IMG/VR virus record: IMGVR_UViG_3300028045_000001
Coordinates: 1 to 64,000 of that record
DNA length: 64,000 nt
Origin: a virus
Direction: 5' to 3' (one strand)
In this document: piece by piece, positions 3,378 through 56,125 of the stretch
Numbering within the stretch: the stretch's first letter is position 1
How the letters are laid out: every line of letters begins with the position of its first letter
Translations under genes and position numbers: made by a program
Notes under the pieces: model-generated
What the model saw: the letters and a program-made list of their open reading frames with translations, nothing else
Databases searched by the model: none
Told to the model about the DNA's origin: nothing

Positions 3378-4550
3378 ATGATGCGATCAATAATACCACA
3401 CTTGACAAAAGACTATAGCGTCTACGAAACACCCAATGCTCACCTAATTGAATTAAGTGAGATTCTGGAGGAAGTGCGACAAGATAAAAGAGAGGAGCTA
3501 AAGTTACAAAAAGAATTAGGGGAAATTGAACATCTAAAGGATACAATTAAGGAATTTGGTTTAACACCCTCTTTGGCTAAATATCTTAAATTAAATGGCG
3601 GAGATGCGCTATTTAATCCAGACCATGGGATATCGTTAAAGGGATATATTGATGATTTATATTCTATGGAAGCCACTCAAGAAATAGTTATGAGCGGGCT
3701 ATCCGATACAATAGGTGGTATTCGTCAAAGAATTAAAGATAGAGTTGGTGCGATAAAAAAAAAGTGGTCAGATTTTATAAAGGGAAAATGGGCACTACAG
3801 GCTGAAGGAATATTGGAGTATATAAAAAAGGTTAGATTCATTTTACAGAATGATTTCGATTGGAGTTCCGTCGAAGATAAGAAAATGGAAGCCGTCGTTC
3901 ATCCGAAAGATATACTTGCTTATTTTCAAAAACACAGCGATTATGATGCATCTCCCTGGACGCAATTAATTAATGATATGTTGGTACAATTCGACAATTC
4001 TGTCCCACATGCTAAGGCGTTAGATGCAACGCAATTGAATAAATTAATTGGGTCGTTCAAAGATATCATTACTATAAAAATTGATAGTAAAGTATGGTGT
4101 GGGGCAACGGTGTCTCCTACAAAAAAATACGAGGTGAATGGACCCCTAACTTTAAAAAATGTCAAACTAAAAAATTTAGCTATCAGAAAGCATGCATTGT
4201 CTTTATTGGAATCTATAGAGGGTATATACCGAGGCCTTCTGCCTCCTCAGGCTGAATTAAACGAAAGGTACCCCGACTCCAGTACTATTCCGGTGGCGGT
4301 AACTAATTTTTCGTCTTTTTACGATGCAGTAGCAAAATATTATAAAAAAATGCAGGACCGGTATGTATGGGCCGGCGACCCAGACAAGAAGGACTTCGAA
4401 CGTGCAGCCGCATTGTCTCTTGAAAGTATAGTAGTTATGCAGGGTAACTTTGATTATTGGGTCACAGAGCTTTTGCTCAATTATATAAAACATGGTCTGT
4501 CCATATTTCAAAAACTCACAACCGAAGAATTTACACTTTACGAACAATGA
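3378..4550 (+). CDS. paralog family A protein, copy 2
   Basis: Contains ISLKGYIDDLYSMEATQEIVMSGLSD, homologous to the family A signature. Sits in tandem with copy 1. Confidence 0.6.
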   Translation: MMRSIIPHLTKDYSVYETPNAHLIELSEILEEVRQDKREELKLQKELGEIEHLKDTIKEFGLTPSLAKYLKLNGGDALFNPDHGISLKGYIDDLYSMEATQEIVMSGLSDTIGGIRQRIKDRVGAIKKKWSDFIKGKWALQAEGILEYIKKVRFILQNDFDWSSVEDKKMEAVVHPKDILAYFQKHSDYDASPWTQLINDMLVQFDNSVPHAKALDATQLNKLIGSFKDIITIKIDSKVWCGATVSPTKKYEVNGPLTLKNVKLKNLAIRKHALSLLESIEGIYRGLLPPQAELNERYPDSSTIPVAVTNFSSFYDAVAKYYKKMQDRYVWAGDPDKKDFERAAALSLESIVVMQGNFDYWVTELLLNYIKHGLSIFQKLTTEEFTLYEQ

Positions 4551-4605
4551 AGCATACGGCATCTTTTTTTAATTAGTTTAAACGTTTGTTTATATTTAAT
4601 CACCT

Positions 4606-4646
4606 ACACCCACGGGAGAGACCTCCCGTGGGTGTATTATTTTTAT
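4606..4646 (+). terminator. intrinsic terminator hairpin
   Basis: Perfect 13-bp stem ACACCCACGGGAG/CTCCCGTGGGTGT with a 4-nt loop, followed by a T-rich tract. Confidence 0.75.
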
Positions 4647-4665
4647 TCCTCAATACTTTTTTATT

Positions 4666-4675
4666 TATATATTAC
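4666..4675 (+). promoter_or_regulatory. phage early-promoter-like motif TATATATTAC
   Basis: Exact copy of the recurrent motif, preceded by a T tract and a terminator. It lies 109 nt upstream of the ATG at 4775. Confidence 0.55.
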
Positions 4676-4774
4676 TGTAATAGTACATATAGTAATTTTA
4701 GTTTTATTAATCTAATAGGGTTTGGGGGTATAGGTGTCGTGAATAGCGCAGCGTTAGATCAAAGTGAGTTCAAT

Positions 4775-8100: not shown

Positions 8101-8253
8101 ATGACAATTCATAATGAACTTCCAGCTAAGCTATTTACAGAAGCATTTATAATGCATACTGAAAACACCTTATCGCAATTTAAAGAGATATTGGATGCTC
8201 TAAGTGAACGAATGGATGTTGTGCAGGCAAGCATGGAAAAACCGATCAGATGA
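8101..8253 (+). CDS. hypothetical small protein (50 aa), truncated paralog of 7824..8060
   Basis: Not in the ORF track because it is under 60 aa. Reads [50 protein letters not shown]. Has the same upstream block AAAAAATAAAACTTAGGAGGA. Its stop overlaps the ATG at 8250 (ATGA). Confidence 0.45.
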
Positions 8254-10379
8254 TCTCGGACCTTTCACATAGAATGGAATTAAATGAGGAGTATATGAAA
8301 AATCAAGAAACAGTAGTGATACCAACTTACGATAGCCAAATTTTATTGCAAACTGACATGGATGCATATAAGTTAGGATGCAAATGGGCAGTGTTAATAA
8401 TCAATAGTAGCTGCGAACTAAAGTTTGAAAACGAGATAAACCGTTCCGAAGCAGACGATCTCATATCCAATACAAAAAATATTATGCTACAAATACAAAC
8501 GACAATAGATAGTTTAGGTATACAAAAAACGATTGTACAAGACAACTCACTAATGGATGAACCAGGTATCATACGCGTAGCTCTCATAGATAAAGAAGAA
8601 GGCATCGTGGACGGAGATATCCCATTATGTATAGCGATATGCTCAGATGAAGATTTAATTGAAGCAGCCGGAATGTGGCTCACTATTGTGTATCGGTTAA
8701 AGATAGGGTGTGAGATTGATTACACTAAATCCGAAAAAGAACGACTCCCACATTTTGAATACCTTGCCACAGTACGACCTGCCAATGCGACAGACAAGGA
8801 AGATTCGACAATGCCAAGTACTTATATTCTCATCGCCCATGCTGTTGCGACTGCCCCTCGGAGTGAAGAGGAACTACGTAAGCATAAAGGTTCGTTTATA
8901 ACAAAGTGGCAAGGACAAAAGATTACCTTACCGTTAGATAAATCCGGAACATATGACTTCGAAATCCATTGGGGCGACGGTGCACACGATAAAGTCATAG
9001 GGTACGATCATAGTAGAATCTCACACACATATGCCGATGGCGAGGAGGTGCATACCATAACCATTTATGGGACTGTAGAAGGATTCGGGTTTGATTATTC
9101 ACCGGGGGCAGGCGTAGCGGATATACTCGATGTACTTCAGTGGGGAGATGTCAAGTTACATAACAACGGAGCTCAGTTTGCACATTGTACAAAGTTAAAG
9201 GGATTCAGTGCTAAGGATGTTCCGGATTTATCTGATGTTACCAATATGTGCGGTATGTTCGGTAAGGCTATTTCTTTCAACCAAGATATATCTAAATGGG
9301 ATGTAAGCAGTGTTACTAATATGGAGCAGATGTTCTGTTACGCCATAGTCTTCAATCAAAACATCTCCAATTGGGATGTGAGTAATGTTACTACTATGGC
9401 TGGCATGTTTAGAGGTGCCGCATCATTCAACCAAGATATATCCAAATGGGATGTAAGCGGTGTTACTAATATGAGGGATATGTTCCATGAGGATACTTCT
9501 TTCAATCAAGCCTTATCTAACTGGGATGTTAGTAGTGTTACCAATATGAACCGCATGTTTTATATGGCTACCTGTTTCAATCAGGAGATCTCTAAGTGGG
9601 ATGTTGGAAATGTTACCGATATGGATGGCATGTTCATGTATGCTGTATCCTTCAACCAAGATATCTCCAACTGGGATGTGAGTAGTGTTACTGGTATGGG
9701 TGCGATGTTCCAGCGAGCTTCATCCTTCGATCAAGACATATCCAAATGGGATGTTAGTAATGTTACCGATATGATGGACATGTTCCGTTGCGCCATAGTC
9801 TTTAACCAAGACATATCCAAATGGGATGTTAGTAGCGTAACTGATATGCAGGATATGTTCCATGCAGCTACATCCTTTAACCAGGATATCTCTAAGTGGG
9901 ATGTAAGCAGCGTAACTGATATGGAGGATATGTTCCATTCAGCTCCATACTTCAATCAGGATGTATCTAACTGGGACGTTAGTAGTGTTACTAATATGAA
10001 CGGCATGTTCCATGAAGCTAAGGCTTTCGATCAAGATATCTCCAAATGGAATGTCGGCAGTGTAACTGATATGCACGGGATGTTCCGAGGGGCTCTTTCC
10101 TTCGATCAAGCTATCTCTAACTGGGATGTGAGTAATGTTACCAACATGAGCGGGATGTTCTATAATGCTGTTCGTTTCGACAAATGTATATATAGCTGGG
10201 ATGTAAGCAAGGTCACTAATATGAGGTGTATGTTCTATGGGGCTACCTGTTTCAACCAGGATATTTCTGAGTGGGACGTGAGTAACGTCACTAATGTACA
10301 AAGCATAGTCGGGCTTGCTCCAAGTTTTAAGCGAAATCTCCCCAATTTTAAAGATTGCGCCAATGTGATAGTTAGATAA
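8250..10379 (+). CDS. BspA-like / DUF285 repeat protein with a unique ~200-aa N-terminal domain
   Basis: About 15 tandem 25-residue repeats (FNQDISxWDVSxVTxMxxMF), preceded by the typical TKWxG..ITLPL..G.YDF.I.WGDG module. Alternative start at 8295 (GAGGAG RBS). Confidence 0.8.
9220..10320 (+). repeat. tandem ~75-bp coding repeats (DUF285 units)
   Basis: Periodic AAYCARGAYATHTC...TGGGATGT...GTTAC blocks are visible in the DNA. Boundaries are approximate. Confidence 0.8.
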
Positions 10380-10509: not shown

Positions 10510-11067
10510 ATGCAATATGGATATTGTGAAAAATGTGGTCAACTAAGTACAGGCAGGTACCCTTCACGTAAGTGTATGAATGTTGATTGTAAAGGGGAGG
10601 ATGGATACGCCATAGATGAGTTATTCGGGGAATTAATTATCAGGTTACATAGCAATGGTATTGTTACTTCGAATTGTTGTTCCGGACATACTCAACTACG
10701 TGCAAGATCAATAGATACACTTTATATGCAATTTAAAGTATCAGCGGATCGTTTTGATAACACCTTTTTAAAGAGGTGTAATGAAATGGTCCCTAACTTT
10801 CCGGAATGTGACTACAACTTTGAATTATGGTGTAACAAGCAAACCGATGTCACGTACTTCAACCTTGTACTGAAATTAAAATCTAAGGAGGATTCGAAAT
10901 GGCCTACTGAGGCAACTGAACGGCAAATATACCACGTCAGTAATCTTTACAACGTATTATCTGATCCAGGGATGATGCAATTTTTATTTTCATTAACTGA
11001 CGAAGAAGAGAAGCTTAGGTACGCCAGATACAAACTATCAAAGGGCCAAATAGGGGGGCACAAATAA
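10510..11067 (+). CDS. Zn-ribbon / CCSGH-motif family protein, copy 2
   Basis: AGGAG lies 7 nt upstream. Reads MQYGYCEKCG...CMNVDC...IDELFGELIIRLHSNGIVTSNCCSGH. The tracked start at 10459 falls inside the promoter cassette. Confidence 0.65.
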   Translation: MQYGYCEKCGQLSTGRYPSRKCMNVDCKGEDGYAIDELFGELIIRLHSNGIVTSNCCSGHTQLRARSIDTLYMQFKVSADRFDNTFLKRCNEMVPNFPECDYNFELWCNKQTDVTYFNLVLKLKSKEDSKWPTEATERQIYHVSNLYNVLSDPGMMQFLFSLTDEEEKLRYARYKLSKGQIGGHK

Positions 11068-11600
11068 TGAGATGCTTTTATTGTAAGTCATGTGGGGTAG
11101 TACATCGTGCGGGGTACCATCCTACTAATTGTAAAAATATGTGTTGCGATGGGACGGTATATGAGATAGATGAGCTGTTTGCAGAATTGATTGTGAAGTT
11201 ACATGGATTGGGCATAGTCACAACCGAATGTTGTTCTGGCCATGCCCATGATGAAAAATCAATTGGGGCGATATATATTTCATTCGCAGTTAAAGGAGCG
11301 AAGACGGAATTCATCAAAAACCACGTTGTAGTCTCACTTAATAAGCAGGCACACGAAGCTTATAAATTTGAGGTCATAGAAAAGGAGGACGAGTATGAGA
11401 GCACCATTAGACTCTGCGTAAAACCAGAATTTAGTGACGTATACATCAATGATTCCCCAACCTGTACAATTTTGAATCACACTAAGTCTTTCATTGCAAT
11501 GTTACTGTATACTCCAAAAATCATAAAGATGCTGTATAGCTTAACTGGAGAGAAAGAAAAACTTAAATACGCTAGATATAGATGTAAGTTACATGCCTAA
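11067..11600 (+). CDS. Zn-ribbon / CCSGH-motif family protein, copy 3
   Basis: Reads MRCFYCKSCG...C..MCC...IDELFAELIVKLHGLGIVTTECCSGH. The C-terminal LTGEKEKLKYARY is shared with copy 2 (LTDEEEKLRYARY). Confidence 0.65.
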   Translation: MRCFYCKSCGVVHRAGYHPTNCKNMCCDGTVYEIDELFAELIVKLHGLGIVTTECCSGHAHDEKSIGAIYISFAVKGAKTEFIKNHVVVSLNKQAHEAYKFEVIEKEDEYESTIRLCVKPEFSDVYINDSPTCTILNHTKSFIAMLLYTPKIIKMLYSLTGEKEKLKYARYRCKLHA

Positions 11601-11602
11601 CT

Positions 11603-11624
11603 GTATGGGGGACACCCCCCATAC
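11603..11624 (+). terminator. short GC hairpin after the stop codon
   Basis: GTATGGGG / CCCCATAC stem. The T tract only appears about 30 nt further on. Confidence 0.35.
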
Positions 11625-11659
11625 TTCCACAGCTTTGATGTCTTCCAATTTTTTTCATC

Positions 11660-11669
11660 TATATATGAC
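11660..11669 (+). promoter_or_regulatory. early-promoter-like motif variant TATATATGAC
   Basis: One mismatch to the consensus. Preceded by CAATTTTTTTCATC, as at 54204. Lies 91 nt upstream of the ATG at 11751. Confidence 0.45.
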
Positions 11670-11750
11670 TTATATGAACAACAAAGTTTCTATACCGTAC
11701 TAACGTTATCTAAATCATCTATATTTAATTTTTAAATGGAGGTCATCGAC

Positions 11751-12365
11751 ATGAAGAAGGAGTTACTGTTGGCTACAATTGCAATTGTGTGTATTTCCGG
11801 ATGTGATGTTAACCTTGATATTGGGCCTGATGAAAGCACCAGTGGAGATGTCACAAATCCATATGGCGTGCATTCTCATCGTAACGCGGCTGTTCCCAAA
11901 GCCTGGTCTAAATTCTGTGCCCGCTATAATCAACCAATTGCTTCGAAAGACTATGGAAAAAGGTTTCAGGATCTAAGGGAGATCTTTCACCCGCTATTCG
12001 ATAATTTCGATCATGTTGAAGACATAGATCATTGGGGAGTCGAAGAGCAATGGGATATCATGCCTGACGACGATCTTCGTGGGGATTGTGAGGACTTTGC
12101 ACTTACCCTAAGGGCTCGACTTATTAGAAATGGATTTCCCATGCATGATGTCCGCATTGCTACTTGTCATATATTGAGGAAAGGCAAGCCTATGCATCAC
12201 GCGGTCGCTTTGGTTGAGGTCGATAGAGGTGATGTCTATGTGGTTGATCCAAGTGGAATATATAAATTTAAAGAGTATCGAGTAGTGTCCTGGAATAAGG
12301 TATTGGATGAGAGTGGCATATATTGGGTCATGATAGATAATATCCCAGGTACAATCAAACTTTAG
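11751..12365 (+). CDS. LapG/BTLCP-like transglutaminase-fold cysteine protease lipoprotein, paralog 1
   Basis: Lipobox ISGC with Asp at +2. Has the WG.EEQWDIMPDDDLRGDCEDFALTLR nucleophile motif, then HHAV and VVD (C-H-D). Confidence 0.7.
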   Translation: MKKELLLATIAIVCISGCDVNLDIGPDESTSGDVTNPYGVHSHRNAAVPKAWSKFCARYNQPIASKDYGKRFQDLREIFHPLFDNFDHVEDIDHWGVEEQWDIMPDDDLRGDCEDFALTLRARLIRNGFPMHDVRIATCHILRKGKPMHHAVALVEVDRGDVYVVDPSGIYKFKEYRVVSWNKVLDESGIYWVMIDNIPGTIKL

Positions 12366-12366
12366 G

Positions 12367-12415
12367 GGTAGAGGGAGAGCATGCTCTCCCTCTACCTGAA
12401 CTCATTATTTTTTTT
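12367..12415 (+). terminator. intrinsic terminator
   Basis: 30-nt perfect palindrome GGTAGAGGGAGAGCATGCTCTCCCTCTACC, followed by a T8 tract. Confidence 0.8.
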
Positions 12416-12418
12416 ATT

Positions 12419-12428
12419 TATATGTTAC
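12419..12428 (+). promoter_or_regulatory. early-promoter-like motif variant TATATGTTAC
   Basis: One mismatch. A T tract lies immediately upstream. Lies 64 nt before the ATG at 12483. Confidence 0.45.
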
Positions 12429-12482
12429 AATCATAGTACAACGATGGTATGTGAAATTTAATTTATAGGGAGTAAAAAAAAT

Positions 12483-13520
12483 ATGGTAGCCAATATTGAA
12501 AAAATTTTAAGCACGATAGTTAGTGAATATAAATCATGGTGTCAAAAAAATAATGTTAAAGATTTTAATAATGAAGATTATAAATATTGTTTTATTGCGG
12601 ATTTTTTTAAACTTAATTCACAAGAACGACGCTTCACTGTTTTAATATCAAAGAAATGCTTAGAAGTATGTGAAGTCATACTCTATGGGGAATCTTTTGA
12701 ATATATGAAAAACGAAGAAAATTCTCTTTGGTTTTATACGGTAATAAATATGACATTCATGGAAAATTTACTTAACTGGGGTACTTCTATTCGTGTAGCA
12801 TGGTTTGAAATTGATGAGAAAGAATATTGTTTTACACATTTCACTCTTAATCTTGATATAGAATCATGGGGAGATTTTATTAAAGCGACTCGTGAATTTA
12901 CAAGAATGAGCTTAACGCCCACAGACTCAGTTGGATCTATAAATACAATTACATATGAAATGGGTTGTAGAATAGCAAAGGATATAATAAAATATTCTAA
13001 AACCAATGATTTATTATTTAAAGTAAAACAAATATTAGTGCGACTGCAGCACATAATGTTTAGCTTTAAAATAAATAAAAGATTTGTATTGACCAGCGAT
13101 AAGAACTTAAAAAATTATAATAATATAAAAATATATTTAATAGATAATACAGAACCACTTAATAGTTGTATATCGCATCTTGATCCAGATGATGTATTTA
13201 CAACGATACCACTTGACCGATTTTATTCGTTTGAAGAAGTAATTGATTCAACTACATTATGTATAAATGTATTGTCTGAAAAAGATTTAATCATTGCGTC
13301 TGGAATATATAGTTTTATTGGAAGCTGCTTATACAACGAATTTAGTATCGATTGTGTTGAAGATAGATGTATAGATGATTCTTATAAAATGCGCTTGCTG
13401 CAAAGCAAAGAAAAAAAGACACTATGTATAGAAAAGGGAGACTATGGCGAAAGGGGTCGTTTATATATAGATGATCTTGTCTATGTCACTATAGAAAATA
13501 TAGACGAAGTTAAATTTTAA
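12483..13520 (+). CDS. hypothetical protein (345 aa), very AT-rich gene
   Basis: The N-terminal 140 aa are paralogous to the next ORF (KKCLEVCEVILY, EENSLW, ESWGDFIKATREF). The C-terminal half resembles the N-terminal domain of the 8250 protein. Confidence 0.6.
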   Translation: MVANIEKILSTIVSEYKSWCQKNNVKDFNNEDYKYCFIADFFKLNSQERRFTVLISKKCLEVCEVILYGESFEYMKNEENSLWFYTVINMTFMENLLNWGTSIRVAWFEIDEKEYCFTHFTLNLDIESWGDFIKATREFTRMSLTPTDSVGSINTITYEMGCRIAKDIIKYSKTNDLLFKVKQILVRLQHIMFSFKINKRFVLTSDKNLKNYNNIKIYLIDNTEPLNSCISHLDPDDVFTTIPLDRFYSFEEVIDSTTLCINVLSEKDLIIASGIYSFIGSCLYNEFSIDCVEDRCIDDSYKMRLLQSKEKKTLCIEKGDYGERGRLYIDDLVYVTIENIDEVKF

Positions 13521-13536
13521 TCCAAGGAAAATGCGT

Positions 13537-14031
13537 ATGTCAGATAATATTAAAAAATACCTAGATGTACTAATTAAACAATATGAAGAATGGATTAAAG
13601 GTAGCGACTATTATGAGGCATGGGTTGAAGAAAATAAATATATTGAAAATTTTAATGATGTAGATTATAAATATTATTTCATTTCAGATGTTTTTGAATT
13701 TACTACATATGAAAATTACTACTCTGCATTAATGGCAAAAAAATGTCTGGAGGTATGTGAAACTATACTCTATAAGAATTTTGAATACATCAAAAATGAA
13801 GAAAATGCGCTATGGTATAACATAATAATTAATATGCCAATTTTAAATGATAAACTTAATTTAAATTCATCTATTCATGAAATACGATTTGAGATTGATG
13901 GGGGGACTAAATATGAAAGTTATTGGTTTCCATATAAATTAACTACTGAATCATGGGGAGAATTCATTAAAGCAATCCGCGAGTTTATACAAACGGAATT
14001 TTATAAACATAATGCACATATTGTAGTATAA
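13537..14031 (+). CDS. hypothetical protein, paralog of the N-terminal half of 12483..13520
   Basis: AAGGA lies 8 nt upstream of the ATG at 13537 (the alternative ATG at 13531 is only 2 nt from the RBS). Shares KKCLEVCETILY, EENALW and ESWGEFIKAIREF. Confidence 0.6.
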   Translation: MSDNIKKYLDVLIKQYEEWIKGSDYYEAWVEENKYIENFNDVDYKYYFISDVFEFTTYENYYSALMAKKCLEVCETILYKNFEYIKNEENALWYNIIINMPILNDKLNLNSSIHEIRFEIDGGTKYESYWFPYKLTTESWGEFIKAIREFIQTEFYKHNAHIVV

Positions 14032-14053
14032 ATGTCTTTCAATGTTTATTAGT

Positions 14054-14063
14054 TATATATAAC
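14054..14063 (+). promoter_or_regulatory. promoter-like motif variant TATATATAAC inside a 45-nt conserved block
   Basis: TGTCTTTCAATGTTTATTAGTTATATATAACTTGACTGAAAGAAG is nearly identical to the block at 15772-15815. Lies 71 nt before the ATG at 14125. Confidence 0.5.
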
Positions 14064-14124
14064 TTGACTGAAAGAAGGAAAGTATATAACTAATAAACTT
14101 AAATACATTGGAGGACACACTATC

Positions 14125-14739
14125 ATGAAAAAGAATATCTTAAATGCAATAGTTGTAATTTTTGTAGTATTGAATATGGTTGCTTGCGATAGCTCAGCCG
14201 ATGGAGATCAATCTCGATCTGGATCTTATAACAATCAAGTATCCAGGATCAAAGCTTATGATGAGTTCTTAGAGAGAGCAGGTCACGAAGTCCCAACAGC
14301 TCCTGAAAAATCCACTGCTGATCTTCAAAGAGTTTATAATGAACTTAGAGACAACTTCACTTACATGAGCGATAAGGAACAATACAATGTAGAAGATTAT
14401 TGGACCATCATGTCAGATGACAATCTTGTTGGAGATGCCGAAGACTTTGTGTTGACTCTTCGTAAGAAACTGATGGATGATGGGTTTAGACTGGCTAATG
14501 CACGAATAGCGCGATGCTATGTCCCAAGAGAAGACAATAAGTATGACTCTAAATACGTCAGCATCAACCATACTGTGCTTCTTGTAGAAGTCGAAATGGG
14601 TAGAGTGTATGTTGTAGATTCAGATGCCCATTATGATTTTTATAACTTTCCTGTGGTAGAGTGGGCTGACATGCTTGATGAAACTGGTGACTATTGGGTC
14701 AAGTTGGATATCCCTGGAAACAGCGATCGGATGATGTAA
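14125..14739 (+). CDS. BTLCP-like lipoprotein, paralog 2 (nucleophile Cys replaced by Ala)
   Basis: Lipobox MVAC with Asp at +2. The motif reads VGDAEDFVLTLR (GCC codon at 14437-14439) where its paralogs have GDCEDFA. His (NHTV) and Asp (VVD) are retained. Confidence 0.7.
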   Translation: MKKNILNAIVVIFVVLNMVACDSSADGDQSRSGSYNNQVSRIKAYDEFLERAGHEVPTAPEKSTADLQRVYNELRDNFTYMSDKEQYNVEDYWTIMSDDNLVGDAEDFVLTLRKKLMDDGFRLANARIARCYVPREDNKYDSKYVSINHTVLLVEVEMGRVYVVDSDAHYDFYNFPVVEWADMLDETGDYWVKLDIPGNSDRMM

Positions 14740-14743
14740 TAAC

Positions 14744-14801
14744 TATACAGGTACTGGGCGATATCGCCCAGTACCTGTATACAAATAAACATTATTTTTT
14801 T
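14744..14801 (+). terminator. intrinsic terminator
   Basis: Perfect 38-nt palindrome TATACAGGTACTGGGCGAT/ATCGCCCAGTACCTGTATA, then a T7 tract. Confidence 0.8.
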
Positions 14802-14839
14802 ACCATGTACTGATGTGCCGTCTTTCAATAAACCTTGGT

Positions 14840-14849
14840 TATATATAAC
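14840..14849 (+). promoter_or_regulatory. promoter-like motif variant TATATATAAC
   Basis: Same variant as at 14054 and 15790. Lies 65 nt before the ATG at 14905. Confidence 0.45.
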
Positions 14850-14904
14850 TTATATGAGGAATAAAAAATTATACAATCAATTTAACTACATTGGAGGACG
14901 GACT

Positions 14905-15702
14905 ATGAAAAAGAATATATTAATTGCGATATCTACACTATTCATGATGTTTACTATGGTTGCTTGTGATGGGAGCAGTGGTGGGGGTGGTGCCTCCGGC
15001 GATGACCTATCGGATTCCGGCGAGCTCACCGGAGATCTTGGCACAGACATCATCATAGATCAATATGTTGGGAACACTACTCCGATTATATCCGTTGGTC
15101 AACCAACTGGACGAGTGCGGGCGTATGATGATTTCTTAAGAAGGGATGGGCAGGATGTTCCAGTGGCTCCGAATAAAAATTCGTTTGATCTGAAAAAAGC
15201 GCATAAGGCATTCAGAAAAAAATTCACCTACATGCACGACATAGATAAATACGGTGTAGATGAATATTGGACTATTATGCCTGATGATGATCTTGTTGGG
15301 GATTGCGAAGACTTTGCTCTAACCTTTCGTGAGAAATTAATTGAAGCTGGATTTACTCCACCAAACGTTAGGATAGCAACCTGCGTAATGCCAAATGGAT
15401 ATAGAGATAATAGCCATCAGACTTATCATGCTGTACTCATCGTAGAAGTTTTTTGGGGTGAGGTGTATGTAGTAGATTCCAAGAGATGTTTGAAGTTCGA
15501 TAGCTTTAAAGTAATAGAGTGGGATAAAGTACTTGATGAAACTGGCAACTATTGGGTCAAGATGCGCATACCTAAGGATAAAGGAAATGGCGATCCAGGT
15601 AATGATAATAAAATTGAAGAAGAGGAAACCGAGAAGGAGGACATGGAAGACGACGAACGAAAAGATGGTCCAATAGGCTATTATGATAGACACTATGCAT
15701 AA
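14905..15702 (+). CDS. BTLCP-like cysteine protease lipoprotein, paralog 3
   Basis: GGAGG RBS. Lipobox MVAC with Asp at +2. A Gly/Asp-rich linker is followed by VGDCEDFALTFR, YHAV and VVD, then an acidic C-terminal tail. The tracked start at 14815 lies in the promoter cassette. Confidence 0.7.
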   Translation: MKKNILIAISTLFMMFTMVACDGSSGGGGASGDDLSDSGELTGDLGTDIIIDQYVGNTTPIISVGQPTGRVRAYDDFLRRDGQDVPVAPNKNSFDLKKAHKAFRKKFTYMHDIDKYGVDEYWTIMPDDDLVGDCEDFALTFREKLIEAGFTPPNVRIATCVMPNGYRDNSHQTYHAVLIVEVFWGEVYVVDSKRCLKFDSFKVIEWDKVLDETGNYWVKMRIPKDKGNGDPGNDNKIEEEETEKEDMEDDERKDGPIGYYDRHYA

Positions 15703-15709
15703 TTCAATC

Positions 15710-15766
15710 CTTACATGTTGTTGACCACACTTGGTCAACAACATGTAAGAATCATTTATTTTTTTT
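15710..15766 (+). terminator. intrinsic terminator
   Basis: 18-bp perfect stem CTTACATGTTGTTGACCA/TGGTCAACAACATGTAAG with a 4-nt loop, then a T8 tract. Confidence 0.8.
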
Positions 15767-15789
15767 AATGTCTTTCAATGTTTATTGGT

Positions 15790-15799
15790 TATATATAAC
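15790..15799 (+). promoter_or_regulatory. promoter-like motif variant TATATATAAC in the conserved 45-nt block
   Basis: Nearly identical to the block at 14030-14075. Lies 63 nt before the ATG at 15853. Confidence 0.5.
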
Positions 15800-15852
15800 T
15801 TGACTGAAAGAAGTAAAATATAAAACTAATTTAACTATATTGGAGGATGACA

Positions 15853-16470
15853 ATGAAAACAAATTTTATCAATACAATGATAATAATTACTGTAATGTTC
15901 GCTACAGCTGCATGTAAAGAAGATGCATCTATTAGTGATTATATGAATAGCGACGCCACCACAGCAGTTGAATCCATGGGTCGACCAACAAGAAGGGTTA
16001 GGGCTTATGATGACTTCTTAAAAAGAACTGGTAAGAAAGTTAATGCCATTCCAAAAAAGAACTCATTCGATCTTATACGAGTATACGACGAGCTCAGAGA
16101 TAATTTTACTTATATGCGCGACATGGAACAATACGGTGTGGAAGAATACTGGACTGTTATGTCGGACGATGATCCTGTTGGGGATTGTGAAGACTTTGCT
16201 CTAACTCTTCGTGCACGATTGATAGCCGATGGGTTCTCTCCAGTGAATGTCAGGATTGCAACTTGTTACGTACCAACCTCGTATACTAAATCCGATGATC
16301 CAGAAAAGCGACTGAATCATGCAGTTCTTATAGTTGAAATTAATAATGGCCAAGTGTATGTAGTTGATAATGGAGACCACTATAAGTTTCATGAATTTGA
16401 GGTAATTAACTGGGACCGCATGCTTGATGAGACTGGAAATTATTGGGTCAATATGAACGTGTCCAGCTAA
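15853..16470 (+). CDS. BTLCP-like cysteine protease lipoprotein, paralog 4
   Basis: GGAGGA lies 5 nt upstream. Lipobox TAAC (+2 Lys). Has VGDCEDFALTLR, NHAV and VVD. Confidence 0.7.
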   Translation: MKTNFINTMIIITVMFATAACKEDASISDYMNSDATTAVESMGRPTRRVRAYDDFLKRTGKKVNAIPKKNSFDLIRVYDELRDNFTYMRDMEQYGVEEYWTVMSDDDPVGDCEDFALTLRARLIADGFSPVNVRIATCYVPTSYTKSDDPEKRLNHAVLIVEINNGQVYVVDNGDHYKFHEFEVINWDRMLDETGNYWVNMNVSS

Positions 16471-16483
16471 AGATTAGACCTAA

Positions 16484-16526
16484 TGTAGGGTGGGCAATAT
16501 GCCCACCCTGTAGTGTATTTTTTTAT
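16484..16526 (+). terminator. intrinsic terminator
   Basis: AGGGTGGGC/GCCCACCCT stem extended by G-U pairs, with a 5-nt loop, then a T7 tract. Confidence 0.7.
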
Positions 16527-16554
16527 ATTTCTATAAAACTAATTGGAGGATGTT

Positions 16555-17157
16555 ATGAAAGGGATCTTTATAAACGTGACCCTAATTGGCCTACTGCTAC
16601 TTGGACTCGCTTGCGAAGAAACAGAAGTTACCCATTCAAAAATAGGTAAGCATAATAGATGGAGGCATGCCGGGTACGATGACTTTCTTAAGACACGTGG
16701 GCAAAAAATTTTCGATAACCCAAAGAAGTTCCTTGTCGATTTTCGAAAGATATACGACGAGCTTAGAGATAATTTCACGTATATGGGTGACGAAGAACAG
16801 TATGGCAAAGAAGACTATTGGACCATTATGCCTGACGACAATCTGGTTGGGGATGATGAGGATTTTGTGCTAACCCTCAGAGAAAGATTAGTTAGTAGTG
16901 GTTTTAATAAAGCTAACGTAAGGATTGCCAGATGTTATAAACCGAGGGAGGATAATAAATATGATTCGGAGTACCTTATGTTCAATCATGTTGTGGCCCT
17001 TGTTGAAATTGAAATGGGAAGGTTGCTTGTAGCAGATACAGATGACTACTACAACTTCTATCGTTTTCCAGTAGTCAGTTGGTACGACATGCTTGATGAG
17101 ACTGGCGACTATTGGGTCAAGTTGGATATGCCAGGAAATTCGGACAAAATGGAATAA
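16555..17157 (+). CDS. BTLCP-like lipoprotein, paralog 5 (nucleophile Cys replaced by Asp)
   Basis: GGAGGA RBS. Lipobox GLAC (+2 Glu). The motif reads VGDDEDFVLTLR (GAT at 16855-16857). Shares the REDNKYDS insert and the ...DETGDYWVKLD.PGNSD tail with paralog 2. Confidence 0.7.
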   Translation: MKGIFINVTLIGLLLLGLACEETEVTHSKIGKHNRWRHAGYDDFLKTRGQKIFDNPKKFLVDFRKIYDELRDNFTYMGDEEQYGKEDYWTIMPDDNLVGDDEDFVLTLRERLVSSGFNKANVRIARCYKPREDNKYDSEYLMFNHVVALVEIEMGRLLVADTDDYYNFYRFPVVSWYDMLDETGDYWVKLDMPGNSDKME

Positions 17158-17159
17158 CT

Positions 17160-17187
17160 ACAACGCCTGGACATGTCCAGGCGTTGT
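17160..17187 (+). terminator. hairpin between paralogs 5 and 6
   Basis: 28-nt palindrome ACAACGCCTGGACATGTCCAGGCGTTGT. No clear T tract, so it may be only a partial terminator or a processing site. Confidence 0.5.
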
Positions 17188-17219
17188 GTAACTTATTTAA
17201 ATACATTGGAGGACATGTC

Positions 17220-17861
17220 ATGAAAAATAAAATTATCAGTATGATGTTAATGGGTGCAATTGTCCTTAATGTAGTTGCATGTGTAGAAGTGACAACTACC
17301 ACAACTACTACAGCTACTGGCGAACCTATTGTAATGGGCGACTACGATATCTCAGGTAATGAAACCCCACTCGAATACATTGATCGACCTTCAAGGAGAG
17401 TTCGATTTTATGATGATTTTTTGAGAAGGACTAATAAGAAAGTTCCCTTAAGTCCTAAAAAGAATGTTGGTGATCTTAAAAAAATATATAAGAAACTTAG
17501 GTCTACTTTTACCTATGTGTCTGACATAAATCAATATGGTGTGGATGATCATTGGGTAGTTATGCCGGACAATAATCGCACAGGGGACTGTGAGGATTTT
17601 GCTTTGACTCTTCGTGAAAAGTTAATTGCAGATGGGTTTGAAAAATCCAACGTGAGATTCGCCACGTGTTACACTCCTAAAAAATATGAGGAAGATGCAA
17701 AGAACAATTACCATGCGGTCCTTATTGTTGAGTTATTTTGGGGAAAAGTGTATGTTGTGGATTATAAGTATTGTGTAGAGTTTCGTAAATTCCCTGTTGA
17801 GAAATGGGATCATGTATTAGATGAGACGGGGAAGTATTGGATCCGGATGGAGATTCGTTAA
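17220..17861 (+). CDS. BTLCP-like cysteine protease lipoprotein, paralog 6
   Basis: GGAGGA RBS. Lipobox VVAC (+2 Val). A Thr-rich linker is followed by TGDCEDFALTLR, YHAV and VVD. Confidence 0.7.
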   Translation: MKNKIISMMLMGAIVLNVVACVEVTTTTTTTATGEPIVMGDYDISGNETPLEYIDRPSRRVRFYDDFLRRTNKKVPLSPKKNVGDLKKIYKKLRSTFTYVSDINQYGVDDHWVVMPDNNRTGDCEDFALTLREKLIADGFEKSNVRFATCYTPKKYEEDAKNNYHAVLIVELFWGKVYVVDYKYCVEFRKFPVEKWDHVLDETGKYWIRMEIR

Positions 17862-17906
17862 TTGTTAACGAAATAAATAATAAATTTTAAACGGGGGGTG
17901 TTTAGT

Positions 17907-18962
17907 ATGGCAGAAGAAGCGTATGAAGAAGAGCTGCATTTATTAGCCCTTATGAAAAAACTATTCACGATGGGCGTTGTTTGTTGCAGTGTTGTTTGGG
18001 CAGGATTTAATGTTTGCAGCACTGTCTGGGATTGGGGCAAGGCAAAGTATGAGACACACAAGCAACAATCCCATACTGAGAAACGGTATCTACGACGAAT
18101 GAAATCACTCGTTGCCAGCTACAATGCTCTCGAATCACAAGTTGCCAAAAACGATAGACGATTAACTGAAATTGAAGGAACGATGACCAGTAAATCCGTT
18201 GGACGAACTTCGAACTCATCTAAGGTCAAACTGTGGCCAAGTAATACTATCAGATACCACATTGATGAGAAAATTGAGGATTGGGATTTAACCCAAATGA
18301 TCGATGAGGCATTTGAAAAAATAAGTGAGAATACTTGTTTAAAATTTCATAAGCTTCCGATACTTTGGAAGGATAGGAGTAGCTTTCTGCTAATCACATT
18401 GACGGAGAGTGACGAGGACTATCCTAATGCGACATTGGGCTATTCGCAAAGAAATCAAGTTGAATTGAGTATGTATTCTGAATTTGATACTGTATACCAT
18501 GAGTTTCTACATGCACTTGGATTGCCCCATGAACACCAAAGACCTGATGCTGAAATAGTCGTTAATTTTGATAACCTTGAAGGTGATAGTACTTGGTACA
18601 GAAAATATCCAAAAGATATGTACCCATACCCTTTGGATAAATTCATCTTTGATGCTGACTCCATTATGGCATATTGCTCATATAGCGAGACAACACAACG
18701 AGGGAAGAAAACTATTAATTACGGGAGAGCGCAGGGGTCACTCAGTCCCACTCCAATTGACTACATGAAGATCAATTGTATGTACTGTGGCTCTAATCCT
18801 CCACCGAAAGAGACCCAGTGGTACATGGCACTACTGAACAGGTATTCCCATAAAGGCTCACCAAAGAAGTTGAAGGTGGTCATAGAAGGGGAAGATGGCG
18901 AACGTGATGTACTTGTCACTTTAGATGAAATGGCATCTTTTGGTAATAAAAAAGAATACTGA
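17907..18962 (+). CDS. astacin-like (M12A) zinc metalloprotease with N-terminal membrane anchor
   Basis: Full astacin signature HEFLHALGLPHEHQRPD (HExxHxxGxxHE) and the Met-turn SIMAY. Has an N-terminal hydrophobic segment LFTMGVVCCSVVWAGF. Confidence 0.75.
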   Translation: MAEEAYEEELHLLALMKKLFTMGVVCCSVVWAGFNVCSTVWDWGKAKYETHKQQSHTEKRYLRRMKSLVASYNALESQVAKNDRRLTEIEGTMTSKSVGRTSNSSKVKLWPSNTIRYHIDEKIEDWDLTQMIDEAFEKISENTCLKFHKLPILWKDRSSFLLITLTESDEDYPNATLGYSQRNQVELSMYSEFDTVYHEFLHALGLPHEHQRPDAEIVVNFDNLEGDSTWYRKYPKDMYPYPLDKFIFDADSIMAYCSYSETTQRGKKTINYGRAQGSLSPTPIDYMKINCMYCGSNPPPKETQWYMALLNRYSHKGSPKKLKVVIEGEDGERDVLVTLDEMASFGNKKEY

Positions 18963-19085
18963 TAGTTACATGACCGGGAAAACAGATCCTCTTGGCGGCT
19001 GGTATAGTGAAGGTATAATGGGATTTGTGAGAATAGAAGACATGATAGATTTTAGTAGGTAAATTAAAACGAAAGGAGACGTAAA

Positions 19086-20084
19086 ATGAAAAAAGGTAAA
19101 ACAACAATCAAGGGCAGTAATGCAAAAATGGCTACATTGGCAATTTGTGGGATAGTTAACATCATTTTTATTTGGACTTTTTGTAGTGCAACGGTGACTG
19201 TTGCAGAGGATGTCGCTGTAACGCACGAGGTACAAGAAGAACAAGTTCCATTTTCAATGGAAGAGCATCGTGTACGATGTCGAAAAGCTACCACTTTAGG
19301 TAGAGAGCACCTTCTGTCAAAGCCCCACACTGTGCAAGGATGGCCCGATAAGGTCATTCGATACTATATCGATAAAGACAGATTGACGGATCCATATGTT
19401 GTTGAAGAAGTAATAAATGTATTCGACGCCATAGCAGAAACCACATGTTTAGACTTCATCCGACTTGATGGACCAGAATCATACAATGTGCAGGTTAAGG
19501 TATTATTGGTAACATCCACTACAAATGGGAGGTACCCCACTTCAACATTAGGATACAATGAGATCGCGAATATAATTAGATTGCGCAATGATTCTCAAAT
19601 ATGGACTATCTATCATATGGTTTTACATGCGTTGGGTTTGACTCATGAGAACCAGCGACCCGACGCAGAGCTTCTTGTTGATATGGATAACATACAAGAA
19701 GAGTTTAAATGTAATTTTGAGAAGCTCCCTGCAAGTTGCTTTCTGTACCCAGTAGATAAGTTCATTTTTGAGGTAAGTTCCATTATGTCGTATAGGCCAT
19801 ACTCTGCCTGTAAAGATTGTAGCAAAAGAACTATCGACTACGGGCGCGAGAAGGAGGGACAACGTGAACCGACATCTATTGATTATATGAAATTGGAGTA
19901 CATTTACTGTGGACTTAATCCGCCACCTAAAGAAACCCAATGGTATTTGTCTTTTCTACATAGGTACCATAATCACTCAAAGCCTGAGGATTTGACGGTT
20001 ACAATAAAAAGTAACGGTATAACTTCATACGTTAATTTTGGTGGCATGGCGTCGCCACTCGGCGATCATGTGAAACCGGAGTAA
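19086..20084 (+). CDS. astacin-like paralog with the catalytic Glu replaced (HMVLH)
   Basis: Reads YHMVLHALGLTHENQRPD. The three Zn-ligand His residues and the Met-turn SIMSY are retained, but the HExxH Glu is Met (ATG at 19617-19619). Has a signal-peptide-like N-terminus. Confidence 0.7.
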   Translation: MKKGKTTIKGSNAKMATLAICGIVNIIFIWTFCSATVTVAEDVAVTHEVQEEQVPFSMEEHRVRCRKATTLGREHLLSKPHTVQGWPDKVIRYYIDKDRLTDPYVVEEVINVFDAIAETTCLDFIRLDGPESYNVQVKVLLVTSTTNGRYPTSTLGYNEIANIIRLRNDSQIWTIYHMVLHALGLTHENQRPDAELLVDMDNIQEEFKCNFEKLPASCFLYPVDKFIFEVSSIMSYRPYSACKDCSKRTIDYGREKEGQREPTSIDYMKLEYIYCGLNPPPKETQWYLSFLHRYHNHSKPEDLTVTIKSNGITSYVNFGGMASPLGDHVKPE

Positions 20085-20112
20085 TAAAACAAGGGTTTAT
20101 TTAATCTTATCG

Positions 20113-20180: not shown

Positions 20181-21470
20181 ATGAAAACAGACACTACCGC
20201 GTTCGTAACAAAGTGGGAAGGGAAACGAGTCACGTTACCATTACACAAAAATGGAACATTTGATTTTGTAGTAGACTGGGGCGACGGTGTAGCAGATCAT
20301 ATAACTGAACATGATCAAAAAGAAATTATACACGATTATGAGGATGGCCAGTTAACGCATGAAGTAGCTATATCTGGCACCATAGAAGGGTTTGGATTTA
20401 TTGTCGATGACCCACTTAGTTACACTGCCATAAATTCGCTCCCCTTTGGATCTTTTCCATTAAATAACACCGACGGCTTTGCGCAGCAGTCCAGGACCAT
20501 TGCATTAGTAAAGAAATTCACGAACTGGTGTATGGGGTTTGTCACATCCAAGCAAGCCATAGTGTCAGGACCAAAGGAAGGAAGCCAATTTATGGACTTT
20601 ATTAAGTCAGCCCAAGCTATGGCCCCAAAACCGAGCGACTGCATATTACTCGATGTCTTACAGTGGGGGGCCGTTAAGTTACACAATGGAGGGTGTCAAT
20701 TTACAGATTGTACAAAGTTAAAAGGCTTCAGTGCTAAGGATGTTCCAGATTTATCTAATGTTACTAATATGATGGGCATGTTCCTCAGAGCTACATCGTT
20801 CAATCAAGACTTATCTAAATGGGATGTGGGTAGTGTTACTGATATGAAAGATATGTTCTGTGGCGCTACTTCCTTTAACCAAAATATCTCTAAATGGGAT
20901 GTGAGTAGTGTTACTGATATGAGCGGTGCGTTCCTCAGGGCTGCATCTTTCAACCAAGACATATCTAATTGGGACGTTAGCAGTGTCACTAATATGAAAG
21001 ATATGTTCTTGGGTGCCGAAGTCTTCGATCAAGACATATCTAACTGGGATGTTGGCAAGGTTACTGATATGGCGAATATGTTTAATGGCGCTACATTATT
21101 CAATCAACCCATCTCTAACTGGAATGTTAACAGCGTCACCGATACAGCTGGGATGTTCTATGAAGCTTCATCCTTTAACCAAGACATATCCAATTGGGAC
21201 GTGGGTAGGGTAACTGACATGAGGTTTATGTTCCACAATGCCACTGCCTTCAATCAAGATATTTCTAAGTGGAATGTTGGCAGTGTTAGGAATATGGATT
21301 GTATGTTCATGTCGGCTGTATCCTTCAACCAAGATATCTCTAACTGGGATGTGAGTAGCGTAACTGCTATGGGAGGTATGTTCTATGAAGCCAGCTCATT
21401 CGATCAGAATATATCCGATTGGGATGTAATCAACACGACCAAAGGAAGTCCCATTAAACAAACAAATTAA
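20181..21470 (+). CDS. BspA-like / DUF285 repeat protein, copy 2
   Basis: The N-terminal MKTDTTAFVTKWEGKRVTLPL...VDWGDG is nearly identical to the ORF at 62864. About 9 repeats of 25 residues. No signal peptide. Confidence 0.8.
   Translation: MKTDTTAFVTKWEGKRVTLPLHKNGTFDFVVDWGDGVADHITEHDQKEIIHDYEDGQLTHEVAISGTIEGFGFIVDDPLSYTAINSLPFGSFPLNNTDGFAQQSRTIALVKKFTNWCMGFVTSKQAIVSGPKEGSQFMDFIKSAQAMAPKPSDCILLDVLQWGAVKLHNGGCQFTDCTKLKGFSAKDVPDLSNVTNMMGMFLRATSFNQDLSKWDVGSVTDMKDMFCGATSFNQNISKWDVSSVTDMSGAFLRAASFNQDISNWDVSSVTNMKDMFLGAEVFDQDISNWDVGKVTDMANMFNGATLFNQPISNWNVNSVTDTAGMFYEASSFNQDISNWDVGRVTDMRFMFHNATAFNQDISKWNVGSVRNMDCMFMSAVSFNQDISNWDVSSVTAMGGMFYEASSFDQNISDWDVINTTKGSPIKQTN
20750..21430 (+). repeat. 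tandem ~75-bp coding repeats (DUF285 units)
   Basis: Same periodic unit as at 9220-10320. Boundaries are approximate. Confidence 0.75.
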
Positions 21471-56010: not shown

Positions 56011-56063
56011 AATCGTAAAAGACATTAATATTTATTCACTACATATAATAGTTAAACAATGTG

Positions 56064-56087
56064 TATATATATATATATATATATATA
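56064..56087. repeat. (TA)12 dinucleotide microsatellite
   Basis: Twelve uninterrupted TA units, flanked by the 11-nt direct repeat CTACATATAAT at 56039-56049 and 56096-56106. Confidence 0.95.
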
Positions 56088-56125
56088 TGTTACTTCTACA
56101 TATAATTTTACACTGCCTATATTTT

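Follow-up and report, generated by a model that had tools for sequence, protein, structure and literature searches.

Six tandem genes for predicted BTLCP lipoproteins, two of them predicted to be catalytically dead, beside an astacin pair in a distant phiKZ-like jumbo phage

Introduction

All bacterial transglutaminase-like cysteine proteinases (BTLCPs) whose role is known are periplasmic and act on systems of the cell envelope. Giant adhesins secreted by type 1 systems carry a retention module, which LapG and DvhG cleave at a di-alanine site; both enzymes need their catalytic cysteine and the aspartate and glutamate flanking it (PMC4359373, PMC13090378). HvyA is a periplasmic BTLCP that prevents capsule formation and alters susceptibility to phage phiCr30; its catalytic cysteine is required (PMC4241560). 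In river single-virus genomes, BTLCP was the most frequent auxiliary gene (PMC11283719). BTLCPs are among the commonest 'auxiliary' genes of environmental phages. Here we describe six tandem BTLCP genes, P1 to P6, at positions 11751–17861 of a 64,000-nt stretch of viral DNA (positions 1 to 64,000 of IMG/VR record IMGVR_UViG_3300028045_000001), which is referred to as the window. The locus is informative in that its products are predicted to be envelope-addressed and apparently early, and comprise six diversified copies, including dead versions that have been kept by selection.

What is new is a lipoprotein subfamily of BTLCPs that has been expanded to six copies with maintained pseudo-enzymes among them, beside an active-plus-dead pair of predicted astacin metalloproteases. 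A phage lipoprotein of described function, Llp of T5, is made early and binds the receptor FhuA (PMC9586334).

Results

All six genes lie on the + strand, and their starts were picked by ribosome-binding site. P1 (11751–12365) encodes 204 aa, P2 (14125–14739) 204 aa, P3 (14905–15702) 265 aa, P4 (15853–16470) 205 aa, P5 (16555–17157) 200 aa and P6 (17220–17861) 213 aa. The sequence TTGGAGGA or a near variant of it, which in P1 is ATGGAGGT, was found 5′ of every ATG and ends ~5–10 nt before it; five of the six chosen starts agree with public gene calls (P0001–P0005). All six open reading frames (ORFs) matched the Pfam family PF06035 (Peptidase_C93, BTLCP) with 40–71 bits (E 1e-19 to 3e-10) at a gathering cut-off of 27 bits, and the membership in this family that an earlier note on this DNA had proposed is thereby borne out. 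A seventh copy was absent when the family hidden Markov model was run over all ORFs of the 64-kb window. Alignment of P1–P6 showed 41 invariant columns, among them those of the GD-x-EDF block and of the catalytic His and Asp. L003 and L004, which are shorter public contigs of this phage, both end within P3, at about window position 15125; assemblies probably break within the paralog array.

The Cys-His-Asp triad is complete in P1, P3, P4 and P6, all of which read GDCEDF and have the invariant His and Asp. P2 reads GDAEDF, with Ala at the nucleophile position (codon GCC at 14437), and P5 reads GDDEDF, with Asp at this position (codon GAT at 16855); the active copies have a TGT or TGC codon for Cys there. 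Both P2 and P5 have kept His and Asp. In all six copies the nucleophile position is preceded by Asp and followed by Glu, the acidic residues of the Ca-binding D-C-E motif; their assignment to a Ca site is taken from PMC13090378 (DvhG D316A/E318A) and PMC4359373. The loss of the nucleophile that the earlier note had reported, with His, Asp and the Ca-binding Asp/Glu retained, is visible in the alignment and in the codons alike. It is not a sequencing error in P2, since the P1–P2 stretch is reproduced by independent assemblies of other samples with one mismatch in 13.4 kb. In DvhG, mutation of the equivalent D/E or C abolishes activity, and the C-to-A enzyme is inactive (PMC13090378); in HvyA, C-to-A or C-to-S abolishes function (PMC4241560). 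Given the inactive C-to-A and D/E-to-A forms of DvhG, P2 and P5 are predicted to be catalytically dead, and their retained D/E pair is read as a Ca site. Among ~199 motif-carrying relatives, Cys was lost only in P5 itself and in P0100.

P2 and P5 group as sisters (bootstrap 97%) and form a constrained clade, in agreement with the earlier view of them as a separate subfamily. They have the strings PREDNKYDS and LDETGDYWVKLD.PGNSD in common. The earlier note had described these as a private insert and tail; the shared strings are real, but the insert is the loop just before the catalytic His, which varies across all six copies and is as long in P4 as in P2 and P5. Pairwise identity among P1–P6 is 36–58%, and P2–P6 form a clade with 85% bootstrap support. 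P1 is the most divergent copy and is equally close to relatives in other phages (40–44%) and to the neighbouring copies. It has kept the ancestral N-terminal W..FC motif, which is common in the BTLCP family, and its Pfam alignment begins at profile position 4.

The proportion of synonymous differences (pS) between P1–P6 pairs was 0.64–0.88, i.e. saturated, as against 0.27–0.46 for nonsynonymous differences (pN); constraint is given as pN versus pS, as synonymous saturation precludes dN/dS. For P2 versus P5, pS was 0.88 and pN was 0.27, the lowest pN of all pairs. Since synonymous sites are saturated, the duplications are old, and every copy is constrained. P2 and P5 thus show the marks of maintained pseudo-enzymes, i.e. 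intact ORFs and amino-acid constraint that continued after the loss of Cys, and a single loss of the nucleophile, in their common ancestor, is probable. A duplicated two-gene unit consisting of P2–P3 and P5–P6 was also considered but was not supported, as P3 and P6 were joined by a bootstrap of only 47%, compared with 97% for P2 and P5.

Each of the six proteins begins with a basic N-terminus and 12–15 hydrophobic residues, followed by Cys. The lipobox and the residue after its Cys are ISGC-D in P1, MVAC-D in P2 and P3, TAAC-K in P4, GLAC-E in P5 and VVAC-V in P6, and the tethers that follow measure ~31, ~21, ~50, ~28, ~18 and ~40 aa in P1 to P6, respectively. A strict PROSITE-style lipobox rule was passed by three of the six copies and a relaxed lipobox fits all six, so that the lipoprotein-type signals described earlier for the whole set can be retained as hydrophobic N-termini ending in Cys. 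Among window ORFs of at least 60 aa on both strands, this type of N-terminus was limited to P1–P6, apart from one spurious internal start. The signal-terminal Cys is also kept in the closest relatives with a complete N-terminus (P0006, P0096–P0102). About 19% of the 230 retrieved family relatives look like lipoproteins, and the lipoprotein anchor itself is therefore not new. The residue at +2 is Asp in P1–P3, Lys in P4, Glu in P5 and Val in P6. The earlier note had taken Asp at +2 as an inner-membrane retention signal; the residue is present in P1–P3, but the rule is enterobacterial, and the phage is only ~25% identical to any cultured phiKZ-like phage. Variation among the copies is concentrated in the tether, the loop before the catalytic His and the C-terminus. 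The P3 tether is rich in Gly, Ser and Asp, that of P6 contains a poly-Thr run, and P3 carries an acidic C-terminal tail of ~44 aa.

When PDB sequences were compared with a profile of the six copies, only LapG was matched (4u65_E, E 1e-3; 4fgo_A, E 1e-2). AlphaFold models of P4 and P5 had a mean pLDDT (predicted local distance difference test) of 83 and 84, respectively, with values above 95 in the core of P4. The structure comparison with LapG that the earlier note had suggested as a check gave LapG as the best and only strong match for both models. For P4, the best PDB matches were LapG of Pseudomonas fluorescens and Legionella pneumophila (probability 1.0, E 6e-6 to 3e-4), and LapG structures also came first for the dead P5. 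Over the chains that matched P4 and P5 best (4u65_E and 4fgo/4fgp/4fgq), the probability was 1.0 and E ranged from ~6e-6 to 1.5e-3; unrelated folds came next and were at least 10-fold weaker. The weaker structural matches included protein glutaminases, N-terminal glutamine amidases and, weakly, NlpC/P60. In both models, 18–50 residues past the signal are disordered, and the loop before the catalytic His is of low confidence.

When 1.84 billion representative proteins were searched exhaustively with HMMER, only eight reached E ≤ 1e-30, and four of these were the window's own. The nearest other proteins (P0006, P0096–P0102) are 167–207 aa long and consist of a signal ending in Cys and a BTLCP domain. 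P1–P6 belong to this phage-borne lipoprotein subfamily of BTLCPs of ~170–210 aa. Those of the nearest relatives that could be placed are single genes on phage-like contigs, amid replication or early-type genes (L001, L007, L006) and not amid lysis or structural genes; L006, 38 kb long, also encodes ERF, SSB, a terminase and a portal protein. In a scan of GTDB genomes, cellular relatives were at most 34% identical and almost all proteobacterial. The best cellular matches came from Alphaproteobacteria (Microvirga, Phreatobacter, Rhizobiales); no LapG ortholog could be recognised among them.

Among 80 viral loci of IMG/VR that were scanned over ±10 kb, 79 had one BTLCP copy and one had two. BTLCPs are also found in Vibrio phages, phrog_12671 is annotated as 'peptidase', and the Caulobacter phage CcrPW encodes a BTLCP-fold 'transglutaminase'. 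The earlier note had called the locus unusual for a phage; this applies to the six copies, but not to the carriage of a BTLCP as such (PMC11283719). The one viral locus among the 80 with two BTLCP genes, L027 (IMGVR_UViG_3300023180_005464, 3858–4709), has two adjacent paralogs that are 33% identical and without signal peptides. Its first copy reads GDCDDY, and its second is without the GDC motif and keeps His and Asp; in its pairing of an active with a dead copy, L027 resembles P2/P3 and P5/P6. In the single-copy lipoprotein relative P0100 (L007, 5184–5756), none of the three triad positions is conserved: it reads GDTNDF and has Arg for His and Glu for Asp.

Alignment of intergenic regions revealed a motif, a T-run followed by TATATATTAC, 5′ of many + strand genes. 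It was found on this strand at 4666, 10445, 12419, 21551, 52071, 54204, 57494 and 62136, mostly 60–100 nt before genes, and the form that recurs in the window is a T-run with TATAT(A/G)TTAC. In the array it takes the form of a T-run with TATATAT(T/A/G)AC, 63–101 nt before the start codons of P1–P4 and of other genes. The motif 5′ of P1 (11660–11669, +) resembles an early promoter and consists of a T-run followed by TATATATGAC. P2, P3 and P4 are each preceded on the + strand by a cassette of promoter and 5′ untranslated region, at 14032–14115 for P2 (GTCTTTCAAT ... TATATATAAC, the latter at 14054–14063), at 14820–14899 for P3 (TATATATAAC at 14840–14849) and at 15768–15847 for P4 (TATATATAAC at 15790–15799). 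The regulatory cassettes are 82–92% identical. Those of P2 and P4 are 92% identical over 80 nt despite the saturated synonymous sites of the coding regions, a sign that the cassette has been under selection or subject to gene conversion. In jumbo phages that encode RNA polymerases, a ~10-nt AT-rich element marks the early promoters, which are read by the virion RNA polymerase (PMC7598289), and the window motif is probably the early promoter of such a virion RNA polymerase of this phage. A long (TA)n run that leads straight into a promoter-like motif, TATATGTTAC, was observed at ~56060–56093.

A GC-rich hairpin with a 9-bp stem (11603–11624, +) ends the preceding unit before the P1 promoter. 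Further hairpins on the + strand lie directly 3′ of P1 (12367–12396, perfect, 15 bp), P2 (14744–14781, perfect, 19 bp) and P3 (15707–15752, 21 bp with a T-run). A hairpin with a T-run 3′ of P4 (16487–16509, +) and a hairpin 3′ of P5 (17160–17187, +) are not followed by a promoter motif. The earlier note had assigned most copies a terminator/promoter cassette of their own. This stands for the hairpins 3′ of P1–P5 and the motifs 5′ of P1–P4, but P5 and P6 have no promoter motif upstream. Between P6 and the two astacin genes that follow it, neither a hairpin nor a promoter motif was found. Because there is no promoter at P5 or P6 and no separator after P6, P4, P5, P6 and both astacin genes are probably one transcription unit with internal attenuators, driven by the P4 cassette. 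The signals of the array were found by intergenic-region alignment and inverted-repeat search, not by generic scans; a sigma-70 promoter scan gave 37 sites with 45.7 expected, i.e. no enrichment, and a generic terminator scan gave seven sites with 6.1 expected.

The window is part of a metagenomic contig of 239,960 bp. One of its products is homologous to phiKZ gp087 (25% identity over 98% of its length), and another resembles the beta subunit of a multisubunit RNA polymerase; a DNA polymerase, a helicase and a GroEL-like protein are encoded as well. The window derives from a distant phiKZ-like jumbo phage. The GroEL-like chaperonin gene lies at 43196–45010 on the − strand (phrog_5725); such genes occur in some phiKZ-related phages. 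Megablast of positions 11000–20100 against 50,697 phage records gave no match, and metagenome contigs are the only sequences in which this phage is known. No tRNAs were found in the window. Indirect hints, namely the proteobacterial cellular BTLCP matches, the strong Shine-Dalgarno sites and the phiKZ-like phage type, speak for a member of the Proteobacteria as host. A host among the Bacteroidota, considered on account of the acidic residues after the lipid-bearing Cys, was dropped in view of the strong GGAGGA sites and the proteobacterial distribution of the family.

Directly 3′ of the array, Ast1 (17907–18962, +) encodes a predicted astacin metalloprotease with an N-terminal membrane anchor, an intact HEFLHALGLPHEHQRPD and a SIMAY Met-turn; it has the full HExxHxxGxxHExxRxD zinc motif. 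Ast2 (19086–20084, +) encodes a predicted pseudo-astacin with an N-terminal signal or anchor and HMVLHALGLTHENQRPD, in which HMVLH stands for HExxH; the catalytic Glu is replaced by Met and the three zinc-binding His are kept. Both proteins matched PF01400 with 67–68 bits (cut-off 22.5), and they are 43% identical to each other. Their best NCBIfam match was a weak one to the Legionella effector LegP (40–51 bits at a cut-off of 300). Neither protein gave a tblastn match in the 50,697 phage records, and a search of 5.8 billion proteins returned no homologs other than the two themselves. Ast1 and Ast2 probably belong to the same module as the BTLCP array. Considered together, the L027 pair, P0100 and Ast2 indicate that dead paralogs recur and are no accident of the array locus; dead paralogs beside live ones are a recurring theme.

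Between P1 and P2 lie X1 (12483–13520, +) and X2 (13531–14031, +), two paralogs that match phrog_18399 and have their own promoter motif at 12419. They are 40% identical, have no export signal and are not BTLCPs; they are probably an unrelated insertion. Their domain is weakly similar to the N-terminal part of a DUF285 protein encoded at 8250–10379 (26% over 133 aa). Together with a second DUF285 (BspA-like repeat) protein at 20181–21470, the latter brackets the protease region, and the repeats of the two are 47–60% identical. Just 5′ of P1, 10459–11067 and 11067–11600 encode Cys-rich paralogs with CxxC-type N-termini that are 34% identical and share the block IDELF.ELI..LH..GIVT..CCSGH; no family match was obtained for them. 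Related ORFs of 330–390 aa were observed at 35714–36727, 38822–39868, 2336–3355 and 3378–4550, and a second related pair of this size at 36852–37898 and 39986–41023. This genome is generally marked by expanded paralog families.

Discussion

With a probability of about 0.45, we read P1–P6 as early proteins that are addressed to the envelope and directed at host proteins there, four of them as proteases and two as binders that do not cut. The export, lipidation, timing and activity that we infer for these proteins, as well as their substrates and the benefit to the phage, would fit together as follows. The jumbo phage would make the six BTLCP proteins early in infection and send them out of the cytoplasm. 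A Sec-type signal with a lipobox Cys would lead to lipidation, so that the domain would hang into the periplasm on a disordered tether of ~18–50 residues. There P1, P3, P4 and P6 would carry out Ca-dependent proteolysis of periplasm-exposed parts of host envelope machines, and surface structures of the infected cell would be stripped or disabled. The phage might benefit in that superinfection is blocked, in that progeny are kept off infected cells and debris, or in that the cell is freed from matrix. P2 and P5 would bind a target and leave it uncut, in the role of a blocker, a trap or a regulator, and the astacin pair, one active and one dead, would act together with the BTLCP set. The differences in the tether, in the residue after the lipid-bearing Cys and in the loop before the catalytic His suggest that the copies differ in reach, membrane address and substrate.

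Several observations weigh against this reading. The 'LapG-like' character given to the proteins in the earlier note is right for family and fold only, as the six copies are not LapG orthologs. In the structural alignment they are 16–20% identical to LapG; P1, P3, P4 and P6 scored 12.6–21.9 bits against the NCBIfam LapG equivalog NF045674, far below its cut-off of 320 bits, and P2 and P5 did not match it. The proteins are too far from LapG for LapG-type specificity to be assumed. In the comparison of 30 window ORFs with Pfam and PHROGs, no LapD/DvhD or LapA-type partner was recognised, and a regular-expression search for DP...[TAP]AAG, the context of LapG-type cleavage, found none in the window ORFs. 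Three of the six lipoboxes depart from the canonical form at −3 or −4; the strict rule is failed by three copies, at position −4 only. The promoters are classed as early by their motif alone. No second array and no relative of more than ~42% identity was found in IMG/VR, GTDB genomes or JGI metagenome contigs. Many phage BTLCPs are ~130 aa long without a signal peptide, or are domains of ~780-aa proteins; the family therefore has other uses in phages.

An extended form of the reading takes the whole 8.3 kb of 11751–20084 as a new early 'envelope-editing' module, in which active/dead pairs of BTLCPs and astacins serve as cutters and blockers on host surface machines. Such machines could be capsule exporters, phage receptors or the pores through which adhesins are secreted; the outcome would be superinfection exclusion or biofilm release, and the dead copies would be evolved binders and not relics. 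In this extent the proposal is a speculative one and rather unlikely to hold.

Of the alternatives, a role like that of HvyA fares best, doubtful as it is. The proteins would then act on periplasmic export or assembly of capsule or exopolysaccharide and not on protein adhesins or receptors, and the infected cell would stop making capsule. HvyA offers the precedent of a periplasmic BTLCP whose Cys is needed against capsulation and which changes susceptibility to phiCr30 (PMC4241560). The alphaproteobacterial origin of the best cellular matches, with no recognisable LapG ortholog among them, the BTLCP-fold 'transglutaminase' of a Caulobacter phage and the family-common W..FC of P1, aligned from Pfam position 4, are in keeping with it. 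However, no cellular BTLCP is more than 34% identical to the phage copies, removal of the capsule from an infected cell would favour superinfection, and a single pathway hardly explains six copies.

The array might also have no collective function and be one of many paralog expansions of an accessory region, with copies that serve different hosts or are drifting. The window indeed also holds two DUF285 proteins, Z1/Z2, X1/X2, two families of 330–390 aa and two astacins. Such an origin is nevertheless improbable: the six ORFs are intact despite saturated synonymous sites, pN is well below pS, the regulatory cassettes have remained 82–92% identical, and the active-plus-dead pairing recurs elsewhere.

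A still smaller chance is given to cross-linking, i.e. covalent modification of envelope proteins by transglutaminase or deamidase activity, through which the envelope would become hardened or sealed or receptors would lose their function. In its favour are the transglutaminase-like fold and the distant structural matches to protein glutaminases and N-terminal glutamine amidases; moreover, the family was first proposed to carry out transamidation, hydrolysis or deamidation, as quoted in PMC4241560. Every BTLCP of defined reaction (LapG, DvhG) is, however, a Ca-dependent protease (PMC13090378, PMC4359373), and none of the six copies has lost the Ca-binding D/E pair typical of these proteases.

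LapD holds LapG at the inner membrane via a defined docking surface (PMC4359373), and the dead copies, which keep the fold and are strongly constrained, might be decoys that mimic LapG on a LapD-type receptor of the host and free the host LapG to cut adhesins at any level of cyclic di-GMP; the active copies would then be redundant or aimed at other targets. Given the very low similarity to LapG, this is very improbable. Equally little credit is due to an accessory function in lysis, in which the lipoproteins would help to break the envelope late, for example by cutting tethers between outer membrane and wall from a spanin-like location. Phage lipoproteins include outer-membrane spanin subunits, and papain-like folds include cell-wall peptidases, with weak NlpC/P60 structural matches here, but the promoter motif is of the early type and common to many other window genes, no holin or endolysin was recognised beside the array in the Pfam and PHROGs scans, the relatives in other phages lie amid replication genes, and six diverged copies, some of them dead, are unexpected for lysis. 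Among the rivals, lysis and cross-linking fit the evidence least well.

If the targets that P1–P6 cut or block are indeed adhesins, receptors or the capsule machinery of the host, the proteins would represent a new route to superinfection exclusion or dispersal and a possible source of enzymes that detach bacteria from surfaces. Should their function be a different one, the active-plus-dead pairing remains a testable rule for phage BTLCPs.

Among the described systems, LapG of P. fluorescens and L. pneumophila shares its Pfam family and fold with P1–P6, and the Cys-His-Asp triad and D-C-E motif with four of the phage copies; it works in the periplasm, as proposed for P1–P6. LapG is, however, soluble and has an ordinary signal peptide, whereas P1–P6 have a lipoprotein-type anchor signal, are phage-encoded and comprise six copies, two of them predicted to be dead; among the 30 window ORFs scanned, neither a LapD receptor nor an adhesin or a type 1 secretion system was seen near their genes. 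DvhG of Desulfovibrio vulgaris resembles P1–P6 in being a membrane-tethered BTLCP with a long disordered linker (PMC13090378). Its tether consists of a transmembrane helix and a linker of ~180 residues, as compared with a lipobox signal and 18–50 residues in P1–P6, and, unlike the phage copies, it is cellular, single-copy and controlled by the c-di-GMP receptor DvhD. HvyA of Caulobacter crescentus is a periplasmic BTLCP that requires its catalytic residues and alters both the cell surface and phage susceptibility (PMC4241560). Unlike P1–P6, it is soluble and without a lipidation signal, is encoded in a locus for capsule export and is under cell-cycle control. Llp of T5, a lipoprotein that is made early and that binds a protein of the host envelope at the periplasmic face of a membrane, may serve as a functional model for P2 and P5, although it is a small binder without a protease fold and is kin to them in neither sequence nor fold. 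The BTLCPs of Vibrio phages, of CcrPW and of river viruses have the same domain, which is horizontally mobile among phages, but they are single-copy and mostly either short and without signal peptide or domains of ~780-aa proteins, whereas P1–P6 represent a lipoprotein subfamily that has reached six copies in this phage only.

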